Below are positions 16,014-16,156 of a stretch of DNA of 64,000 nucleotides, in pieces. Origin of the DNA: Escherichia phage WPEC5; sequence record PV654397.1; one strand, given 5' to 3'. The translations under genes and the position numbers were made by a program. The notes under the pieces are model-generated. The model searched no databases and was not told the origin of the DNA. It saw nothing but the letters and a program-made list of their open reading frames with translations. The stretch's first letter is position 1. Every line of letters begins with the position of its first letter.

Positions 16014-16042
16014 TTGACAAGTGCATCCAGTACTGGCATAAT
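16014..16042 (+). promoter_or_regulatory. plus-strand sigma70-like promoter (antisense to gene direction)
   Basis: TTGACA-N17-CATAAT with A-rich upstream; would transcribe ~105 nt to the hairpin at 16123-16143. Confidence 0.5.
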
Positions 16043-16109
16043 TACTACATCAAGACGAAACAGTCACTAACCCACCGGGTGCCGAGATCCGTCTATTAAA
16101 TGATTCAGT

Positions 16110-16156
16110 ACTGAAAAAGTAACGGGGAGTTATTATCTCCCCGCGTTGTTATTTTG
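16110..16156. terminator. bidirectional terminator hairpin
   Basis: CGGGGAG-TTATTAT-CTCCCCG with T-runs on both sides. Confidence 0.55.

Follow-up and report, generated by a model that had tools for sequence, protein, structure and literature searches.

The 64,000-nt stretch of Escherichia phage WPEC5 analysed here (sequence record PV654397.1; hereafter the window, at its full length) contains ten copies of a repeated element, a cassette of ~90 bp in which a strong bacterial-type promoter is joined to a conserved folded RNA of ~48 nt. The element, first flagged at positions 16014–16156, is a PeSL-like cassette that carries a previously undescribed structured RNA, and it is not a member of the PeSL, nut or put elements or of any Rfam family. 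The existence of the family, its coupling to promoters and the structure of its 5′ hairpin (P1) are all well supported. The results point to an undescribed early regulatory RNA family in this giant E. coli phage and its RaK2-like relatives.

The core of the element, CCCANNGGGTGC, occurs exactly ten times in the window, every time within the terminal repeat (Table 1). When one mismatch was allowed, 11 matches were obtained against ~1.1 expected, a number reached by none of 100 shuffled sequences. A covariance model matched all ten copies (E = 8e-12 to 1.6e-4) and gave no further match in the 64 kb, including the other 42 kb of the window. The nine copies listed in the original prediction are thus real, while a tenth, at 20578, had been missed. 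Upstream of each core in the window lies a near-consensus extended −10 sigma-70 promoter at a distance of 21–29 nt, and when three relatives were added (four phages in all), the −10 was found to end 21–29 nt before the core in 37 of 38 core matches. Promoters had originally been tied to the plus-strand copies only, which does not hold, as every copy has its own promoter at this fixed distance. Relatives were compared through the early regions of six phages, which yielded 71 clean copies; in 54 of these, TTGACA is matched at five or more of its six positions, with a spacer of 16–18 nt and an extended −10, and A/T-rich sequence is visible upstream of the cassette promoters. The two plus-strand TTGACA-N17-CATAAT promoters from which the element was first recognized, at 16014–16042 and 18424–18452, are present, agree with the consensus at 11 of 12 positions and carry the TG extension; they do oppose their neighbours, all adjoining open reading frames (ORFs) of at least 80 aa being on the minus strand. 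Minus-strand promoters of the same TTGACA-N17-CATAAT type at 13314–13342, 13851–13879 and 10133–10161, with the TG extension and CAGTACT in the spacer, are not followed by the conserved leader, so this promoter type is not exclusive to the cassette. The minus-strand core noted earlier in four terminator modules was also confirmed, although these modules are really terminator–promoter composites: a 12-bp hairpin that ends the upstream gene has the −35 (TTGACT) within its stem and the −10 within its T-tract. From this promoter, minus-strand transcription leads into the leader found in the other copies.

In a sequence comparison, the region 15000–19000 is 98% identical to Escherichia phage Ecwhy_1 and 91–97% identical to many other Asteriusvirus (121Q/PBECO4-like) jumbo coliphages with genomes of ~350 kb. 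Since the annotated 21,525-bp direct terminal repeat of vB_Ec-M-J has its start at window position 21662 and runs leftwards from there, the segment ~140–21662 is, by this mapping, essentially one terminal-repeat copy. It holds a dense array of small minus-strand genes. Most of these genes have an individual promoter from a family of 26 copies (TTGCAA-N16-TATAAT), downstream of which comes a hairpin in the 5′-untranslated region (5′-UTR). In papers on related phages, such regions have been described merely as 'RpoD-like promoters with UP elements' before short hypothetical early genes (PMC5259590), and in the published texts on CBB and Sharanji, RpoD-like promoters or the terminal repeat are the sole mentions.

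The conserved leader consists of the P1 hairpin at its 5′ end, a 4-nt linker, the invariant core CCCANNGGGUGC and a downstream strand, termed the P3 strand. P1 was found as 34 distinct stems, the sequence of which changes between copies while the pairing stays (for example GAC/GUC, AGUC/GACU, UGAG/CUCA, UGGC/GCCG, GCCG/CGGC, UCCUG/CAGGA and ACCAC/GUGGU). The loops are A-rich and GNRA-like, mostly GAGAAA, GCGAAA, AGAACAA or AGAUAA, and for 48 of 66 copies the distance from the −10 to the start of P1 is 7–9 nt, which places this start at about +1 to +3. In an ungapped MAFFT alignment of 23 copies, which were picked by the same register and thereby carry a selection bias, all four pairs had changes on both sides, giving 43 compensatory cells compared with 16.6 in shuffles, none of 500 of which reached 43. 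In the same alignment, 94% of the cells were paired, as against 46% or less with a slid partner; a ceiling of 58% is also given for slid pairing of P1. The covariance model was built from these 23 same-register copies, and in the resulting alignment of 78 copies, which is fitted to the model and leans towards structure, 24–33 double changes per pair were counted, 115 in total; shuffles gave 40.7, and none of 500 came up to the observed total. P1 at one orthologous site reads UGGC/GCCG in this phage and AUUG/CAAU in 121Q, wholly different and yet paired. It had been considered at the outset that the copies might be promoter fragments lacking a conserved secondary structure; the compensatory covariation of the transcribed part speaks against this.

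Downstream of P1, the core can engage in two mutually exclusive pairings, P2 and P3, both of which use its GGGUG. In P3, its possible partner is a stretch further downstream in which variation is confined to Y-R-Y-C-Y, the wobble complement of GGGUG; the stem is 96% paired, its variation consists of GU↔GC and UA↔UG exchanges, and in a slide control the paired share falls from 89.5% to at most 64%. For P2, R-CCC pairs with GGG-U over a loop of 3–4 nt to give a 4-bp hairpin that is 93% paired and almost invariant; in the Serratia and Yersinia phages, the P2 loop is one base longer (CCCUAUAGGG) and the pairing is kept. The shuffle control is uninformative for both, because their invariant 5′ strand gives no double changes. 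As judged from these pairing models, P2 and P3 may be two states of the RNA. Owing to its many G·U pairs, P3 is specific to the promoter-sense strand, and the restriction of this stem to the strand downstream of the promoter therefore favours an RNA over a DNA site.

Other identities were considered for the leader. A mini-ORF with GGGUG as its Shine–Dalgarno (SD) sequence was rejected, since an NUG start is seen for only 41 of the 76 copies, while the bases that vary further downstream (Y14 R15 Y16 C17 Y18) suit pairing rather than coding. A CsrA-type sponge was likewise rejected, with GGA in the P3 loop in only about half of the copies. A DnaA box (TAACCCACA), IHF or CRP sites and a mimic of CRISPR repeats were dropped by eye, as the relevant bases vary or the stems are unconserved.

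A covariance-model search with the aligned copies, as proposed in the original prediction, recovered 78 copies in 285 kb, including the ten of the window, from seven genera of RaK2-like phages. The flagged 106 bp are found at 89–100% identity in Escherichia and closely related Salmonella phages and at 77–80% identity in Klebsiella RaK2-type, Erwinia and Salmonella Munch-type phages, and a consensus 60-mer also matches the phages Cronobacter GAP32, Pectobacterium CBB, Serratia BF and Yersinia fHe-Yen9. The family accordingly ranges over phages of Escherichia, Klebsiella, Salmonella, Erwinia, Yersinia, Serratia, Cronobacter and Pectobacterium, and in every relative examined the cassettes lie in the ~20-kb early/terminal-repeat region. 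An exact 26-nt pattern comprising the core and the P3 strand was found in IMG/VR nearly always on genomes of ~350 kb, with a 109-kb contig as the exception, and among 185,579 bacterial and archaeal species genomes it occurred only once, on a 2.5-kb contig of a metagenome-assembled genome. As both searches were nearly empty elsewhere, the element is specific to the RaK2-like clade, and a host origin was rejected on the single occurrence in the species genomes. Rfam 15 gave no match at the gathering threshold in the whole window, and over 15980–16170 nothing with E < 0.1 was obtained, all scores being far under the gathering score. The core strings were not found in a text search of ~8 million papers, nor was a transcript map for RaK2-like phages found in the literature. 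The only related transcriptome is that of PA5oct, a distant relative, in which the terminal repeat gives rise to abundant non-coding RNAs (PMC7318152). The highly expressed ncRNA1 and ncRNA2 of PA5oct were rejected as homologues, given that they lack the core and are not matched by the model.

The suggestion of a regulatory cassette inserted in both orientations proved correct in its second half at least: among the 71 copies, 47 are sense and 24 antisense relative to the genes. The two classes are built differently. A hairpin of at least 7 bp that contains the −35, i.e. a fusion with the upstream terminator, was found in 24 of 30 sense copies vs 1 of 14 antisense copies, and most sense copies in the window are followed by a standard early promoter 45–80 nt further on. 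Single antisense copies stand back-to-back with the promoter of the next gene and run into the bidirectional terminator of the previous gene. The hairpin and T-run reported after the first plus-strand promoter are indeed present, the hairpin being bidirectional and its tail T-rich, and the stretch 16014–16157 is conserved as a unit, one of 11 antisense copies from seven phage genera that share the order promoter, domain, AU-rich spacer, (C/T)AGTACTG, A-run and GC hairpin. The ~105-nt RNA proposed for it is hence the predicted product of a credible small RNA gene. A promoter-to-terminator unit of ~50–300 nt with no ORF was seen in 16014–16157 and its ten related antisense units, while sense copies and convergent pairs have no such unit of their own. 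From an alignment read by eye, a T-rich tail lies on the module strand in ~8 of the 11 units, and this kept layout suggests that a discrete terminated RNA is wanted. Another 12 antisense copies are paired convergently with a sense copy, the gaps between the cores being fixed at 45, 56 or 63 nt in several genera. An inverted repeat had also been claimed at 20356–20424; its plus-strand core at 20362 stands, whereas the minus arm (20405–20432) is a degenerate promoterless remnant, which by its sequence looks like a terminator for minus-strand transcripts.

The idea that the cassette is mobile gained no support from the comparison with relatives. Phage 121Q, which is ~88–90% identical, agrees with this phage in all ten copies, including their order and orientation, and the sites are collinear; the homologue of the 83-aa gene beside the flagged copy has an antisense copy at the same position in Erwinia phage Hallingskeid. 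Cassettes of 140–200 bp cross-match within the genome at 77–89%. By these comparisons, the cassettes are old and positionally stable, and recent mobility is not supported.

Table 1. Coordinates of the cassette copies and associated features (window positions unless a relative's stretch is named)
Feature	Position	Strand	Details
Flagged copy, promoter	16014–16042	+	−35 TTGACA 16014–16019; TG 16034–16035; −10 CATAAT 16037–16042
Flagged copy, CAGTACTG in promoter spacer	16028–16035	+	predicted start near A16049
Flagged copy, leader domain	16049–16098	+	model match 50.5 bits, E = 3.4e-10
Flagged copy, P1	GAC 16054–16056 : GUC 16063–16065	+	loop GAAACA; linker ACUAA
Flagged copy, core	16071–16082	+	CCCACCGGGUGC
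Flagged copy, P2 alternative	16070–16073 : 16077–16080	+	
Flagged copy, P3 alternative	GGGUG 16077–16081 : CGUCU 16090–16094	+	
Flagged copy, 3′ part of candidate ~105-nt RNA	16099–16157	+	AU-rich spacer; CAGTACTG 16106–16113; A-rich run
Flagged copy, terminator	16123–16143	+	bidirectional hairpin; T-rich tail 16144–16157
83-aa gene	16149–16400	−	convergent; terminated by the same hairpin 16123–16143
Antisense copy	18424–18501	+	promoter 18424–18452; short-type leader; degenerate P1; core 18474–18485; 28 bits, E = 1.6e-4
Sense copy	18515–18596	−	promoter TTGACT-17-CATAAT 18596–18568; P1 UGGC/GCCG; core 18531–18542
Convergent pair	18424–18501 / 18515–18596	+ / −	45 nt between the two cores
Copy facing genome terminus	20306–20389	+	promoter 20306–20333; P1 CGC/GCG; core 20362–20373; 52.5 bits
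Decayed promoterless partner remnant	20405–20432	−	P3-like hairpin AGGGUGCGGGAGUGUAUCCU + U7; no model match
Tenth copy	20522–20605	+	promoter TTGCTT-16-TATAAT 20522–20549; P1 AGUC/GACU; core 20578–20589; 48.5 bits
Sense copy	9293–9377	−	promoter 9377–9349; P1 GACG/CGUC; core 9309–9320
Sense terminator–promoter–leader composite	10949–11041	−	−35 11031–11026 inside 12-bp hairpin; −10 TATTAT ends 11003; P1 UGAG/CUCA; core 10965–10976; then standard early promoter 10909–10882
Sense terminator–promoter–leader composite	6937–7024	−	short-type leader; core 6953–6964
Sense terminator–promoter–leader composite	3654–3746	−	P1 UGAG/CUCA; core 3670–3681; 57 bits
Sense terminator–promoter–leader composite	1399–1486	−	short-type leader; core 1415–1426
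AATGAGAATCATT-type palindromes in relatives' stretches	L004 7123–7141; L002 22804–22828, 23870; L003 19378, 19702; L007 1034		

We tentatively favour the reading that the 48-nt domain itself is the product, a many-copy immediate-early RNA that is bound by one conserved protein. Transcription of the cassettes by host RNA polymerase would begin upon entry of the terminal repeat. Transcripts of antisense copies, 16014–16157 among them, would end at the bidirectional terminator of the neighbouring gene, which would yield free RNAs of ~100–110 nt, while at sense copies re-initiation right after the terminator would place the domain at the 5′ end of early mRNAs, from which cleavage in the AU-rich spacer could free it. 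The domain would then act as a binding platform or decoy for one conserved host or phage protein. 5′ stem-loops are known to protect RNA with respect to RNase E, and P1 at the extreme 5′ end would offer such protection too. This reading is preferred because the sole invariant part is identical in all copies, whatever their neighbours or orientation, because P1 need only be a hairpin at the extreme 5′ end, and because the antisense units keep their terminator, mostly with a T-tail on their own strand.

Several points weigh against an RNA ligand. Start sites, 3′ ends and expression of the cassettes are predictions, and the protein partner is postulated. The sense copies, two thirds of the total, have no terminator of their own, and a free RNA would need putative processing there; moreover, convergent pairs would yield mutually complementary RNAs, a poor fit to a ligand. 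As for the fold, P2 and P3 each rest on one-sided changes with an invariant 5′ strand, RNAalifold picks P2 rather than P3, and the single-sequence fold of the 110-nt candidate is no stabler than that of shuffled sequences (z = −1.2).

The main rival, possible though doubtful in our estimate, is that the nascent RNA contains a cis element of the nut/put kind, by which its own polymerase would be made resistant to terminators and pauses; the polymerase so modified could cross the many terminators of the 21-kb repeat and perhaps speed genome entry. Consistent with this, the element always lies directly downstream of a promoter, like putL (PMC9378689), and comprises two small hairpins. P1 is boxB-shaped, and in the lambda immunity region the best model match was nutR boxB aligned to P1, at only 6.6 bits and a non-significant E of 0.53. 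Several strong terminators lie between successive sense copies, and the placement of these copies exactly at terminator/promoter junctions would sort terminated from re-initiated, modified polymerases. However, one third of the copies oppose the genes and meet a terminator whose T-tail is on the strand of the copy, where read-through would produce antisense RNA only, and every gene that follows a terminator is already provided with a promoter. A boxA-like motif (CGCUCUUA / UGCUCUUUA, searched as YGCTCTTTA with at most one mismatch) was not enriched in the window, with 22 sites against 26 expected and none adjoining a copy, and no convincing Arg-rich small ORF of the N type was present in the 64 kb. 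With filters off, the model found no match in the immunity/put region of HK022 (24–32 kb), the best hit there being 8.6 bits (E = 0.39) inside the erf gene. A bolder proposal, which we consider unlikely, goes further than a ligand: the domain would act on host RNA polymerase, or on some other conserved machine of the host, and reprogram it within the first seconds of infection independently of any phage protein. It would be built into every terminator/promoter junction of the terminal repeat, with antisense and convergent copies supplying it in trans and P2/P3 serving as a switch. If this were true, re-initiated polymerases would be processive motors for early expression, perhaps drawing in the 350-kb genome.

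It is rather less plausible that the element is purely a regulatory/recombination cassette of the PeSL type, whose promoter and stem-loops insulate genes and supply homology for shuffling, with the hairpins as attenuators or 5′ stabilisers and the 12-mer kept by gene conversion. The sense copies do have a sigma-70 promoter with AT-rich sequence upstream and a terminator stem-loop that overlaps it, as do the PeSLs of T4-type phages (PMC2839356, PMC4122927), to which RaK2-like phages are related, and the cross-matching of cassettes within the genome would suit this view. PeSLs, however, end in the SD sequence and start codon of the next gene and are defined by their link to gene shuffling (PMC2839356, PMC4122927), whereas neither an SD sequence nor a start codon follows here and no copy was gained or lost between this phage and 121Q. 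Gene conversion also cannot explain a 12-mer that is invariant across genera with no other DNA similarity, beside a compensating P1. The flagged copy converges on the 83-aa gene, an arrangement kept in Hallingskeid, and the fixed spacings of the convergent pairs in several genera likewise fit antisense or convergent-transcription regulators that act on minus-strand neighbours through 3′-end overlap or polymerase collision. Even so, we regard these as decidedly unlikely, as the conserved part overlaps no gene, the predicted terminated RNA stops before the coding region, and 47 of 71 copies are sense. The domain is thus probably not an antisense regulator of its neighbours, and antisense transcription, as first proposed, is not supported as its purpose, the invariant part being common to all copies whatever lies beside them. 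Very improbable, finally, is a site that works as DNA, for example as an operator, as an origin or primer promoter for replication, or as a signal for packaging or injection. Its appeal lies in the concentration of ten copies in the 21.6-kb terminal repeat vs none in 42 kb, in the partly palindromic core (ACCC NNN GGGT) and in a cassette pair that lies here no more than ~1.3 kb from the physical end of the genome, and in the relatives examined within 0.3–1.1 kb of the record start. Yet read on the opposite strand, or as a duplex, the G·U pairs of P3 become A·C mismatches, and P1 keeps pairing and not sequence, which a protein-binding DNA site would not tolerate.

Several further features were observed around the cassettes. 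The 8-bp palindrome CAGTACTG occurs 61 times in the window against 1.1 expected; 37 of these sites fall in the 21.7-kb terminal repeat and the remaining 24 in the other 42 kb (for example at 16028–16035, 16106–16113, 18399–18406 and 20536–20543). It often lies in promoter spacers directly against the −10, where it supplies the TG extension, and it is probably a binding site for some regulator. AGTACT is found ~20 nt after the core in many cassette copies, and in the Serratia and Yersinia relatives AGTACTGG...CCAGTACT makes up whole terminator hairpins. Palindromes of the AATGAGAATCATT type lie at the centre of convergent cassette pairs in relatives and in nearby terminal non-coding DNA; they fit the E. 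coli Fur-box consensus at 15–17 of 19 positions, and none scoring at least 16/19 was present in the 64-kb window.

The standard early-gene cassette has 26 copies across 872–21310 (e.g. 15937–15992 and 16406–16461) and is composed, in order, of a UP-like A/T run, TTGCAA-N16-TATAAT, a leader that begins ACAUC(G/A)AG, a 5′-UTR hairpin such as GGGGAGAAnnnnUUCUCCCC, then ACUAAGAGG and ATG. Because its 'hairpin + ACUAA' resembles the 'P1 + CUAA' of the conserved leader, both leaders may be of common descent. A minus-strand gene (8794–9051) located ~260 nt downstream of the copy at 9293–9377 encodes an 85-aa DksA/TraR C4 zinc-finger protein (Pfam PF01258, E = 3.7e-9; phrog_54), which on this assignment is likely a modulator of host RNA polymerase; DksA/TraR-like genes are annotated in Hallingskeid and Munch too.

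Position 21662, where a small hairpin (GGCAGAGGAAGTCTGCC) lies, corresponds to the physical end of the genome, and the plus-strand promoters at 20306, 20522 and 20647 are all directed at this end. The surrounding terminal non-coding segment of ~1.9 kb (20100–21960) contains a 16-nt tandem repeat, CCATCTAGCCGTTTAG, in 3.5–3.9 copies at 20786–20854, ACGCCCAAAAT/CACCCAAAATCC repeats at 20356–20945, several CAGTACTG sites and terminator-like hairpins, and could contain an origin or an end-recognition or injection signal. Further along, ~20 back-to-back paralogous minus-strand ORFs of ~60–70 aa with internal DNA repeats occupy 21965–26565 and match 121Q genes 249–265, and an unrelated repeat family, the motif TATAATCATAATTAATATC with its variants TATATTCAAAATCAATATC and TATAATCAAAATCAATGTC, has at least ten occurrences in 2.7 kb (49143–51803). 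No tRNA or tmRNA gene was found in the window.

RaK2-like jumbo phages (121Q, PBECO4, phAPEC6, RaK2, GAP32, CBB and others) are under study for therapy, and ~80% of their genes have no assigned function. Against this background, a clade-wide RNA element with good covariation support, at ~10 copies per terminal repeat and hence ~20 per packaged genome, all on terminal-repeat DNA and driven by the strongest class of host promoter, would offer a concrete handle on host takeover, the 48-nt domain being a defined bait for a protein partner. The element would also serve as a new RNA family for annotation and as a marker of the terminal-repeat region.

Among known systems, multi-copy 'sibling' families of small RNAs or decoys include Qrr1–5 and the CsrB-type protein sponges. 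Like these, the present family has several separately transcribed copies with one invariant segment and a variable rest, and its antisense copies run from promoter to terminator; unlike them, most copies here have no terminator of their own, and GGA, as expected of a CsrA-type sponge, is present in the P3 loop of only about half of them. With lambda nut, the element shares its promoter-proximal position in the RNA and early units that are interrupted by terminators; P1, a hairpin of 3–5 bp with a GNRA-like, A-rich loop (GAGAAA, GCGAAA), has a boxB-like shape, but the model match of nutR boxB to it was non-significant. In contrast to nut, its conserved sequence lies 3′ of the hairpin, and it is present in ~10 copies, one third of them antisense. 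The put RNA of HK022 consists of two stem-loops transcribed right after an early promoter and requires no phage protein (PMC9378689). The leader described here likewise has two stem-loops just after an early promoter, and by analogy an independence of phage proteins would suit an RNA made at time zero from the first-entering DNA; put, however, is ~70 nt long with two copies, and the antisense terminated copies have no put counterpart.

The likeness to PeSLs lies in the upstream half of the sense copies. Both are repeated intergenic cassettes of ~100 bp amid many small early genes, and both have a sigma-70 promoter that is close to consensus and preceded by AT-rich sequence. Most sense copies, but hardly any antisense copies, also have a G/C terminator stem-loop over the promoter as PeSLs do, the A3G3-loop-C3T3 stem being that of the nt-1 PeSLs. 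The present family differs in occurring in both orientations, in that a second promoter, a terminator or a convergent partner comes next where PeSLs have an SD sequence and start codon, and in having no insertion/deletion polymorphism between close relatives (one compared, 121Q). PeSLs carry no conserved transcribed RNA domain; this family adds an invariant 12-mer and covarying hairpins, indicating that T4-type terminator/promoter cassettes can carry a conserved RNA payload.

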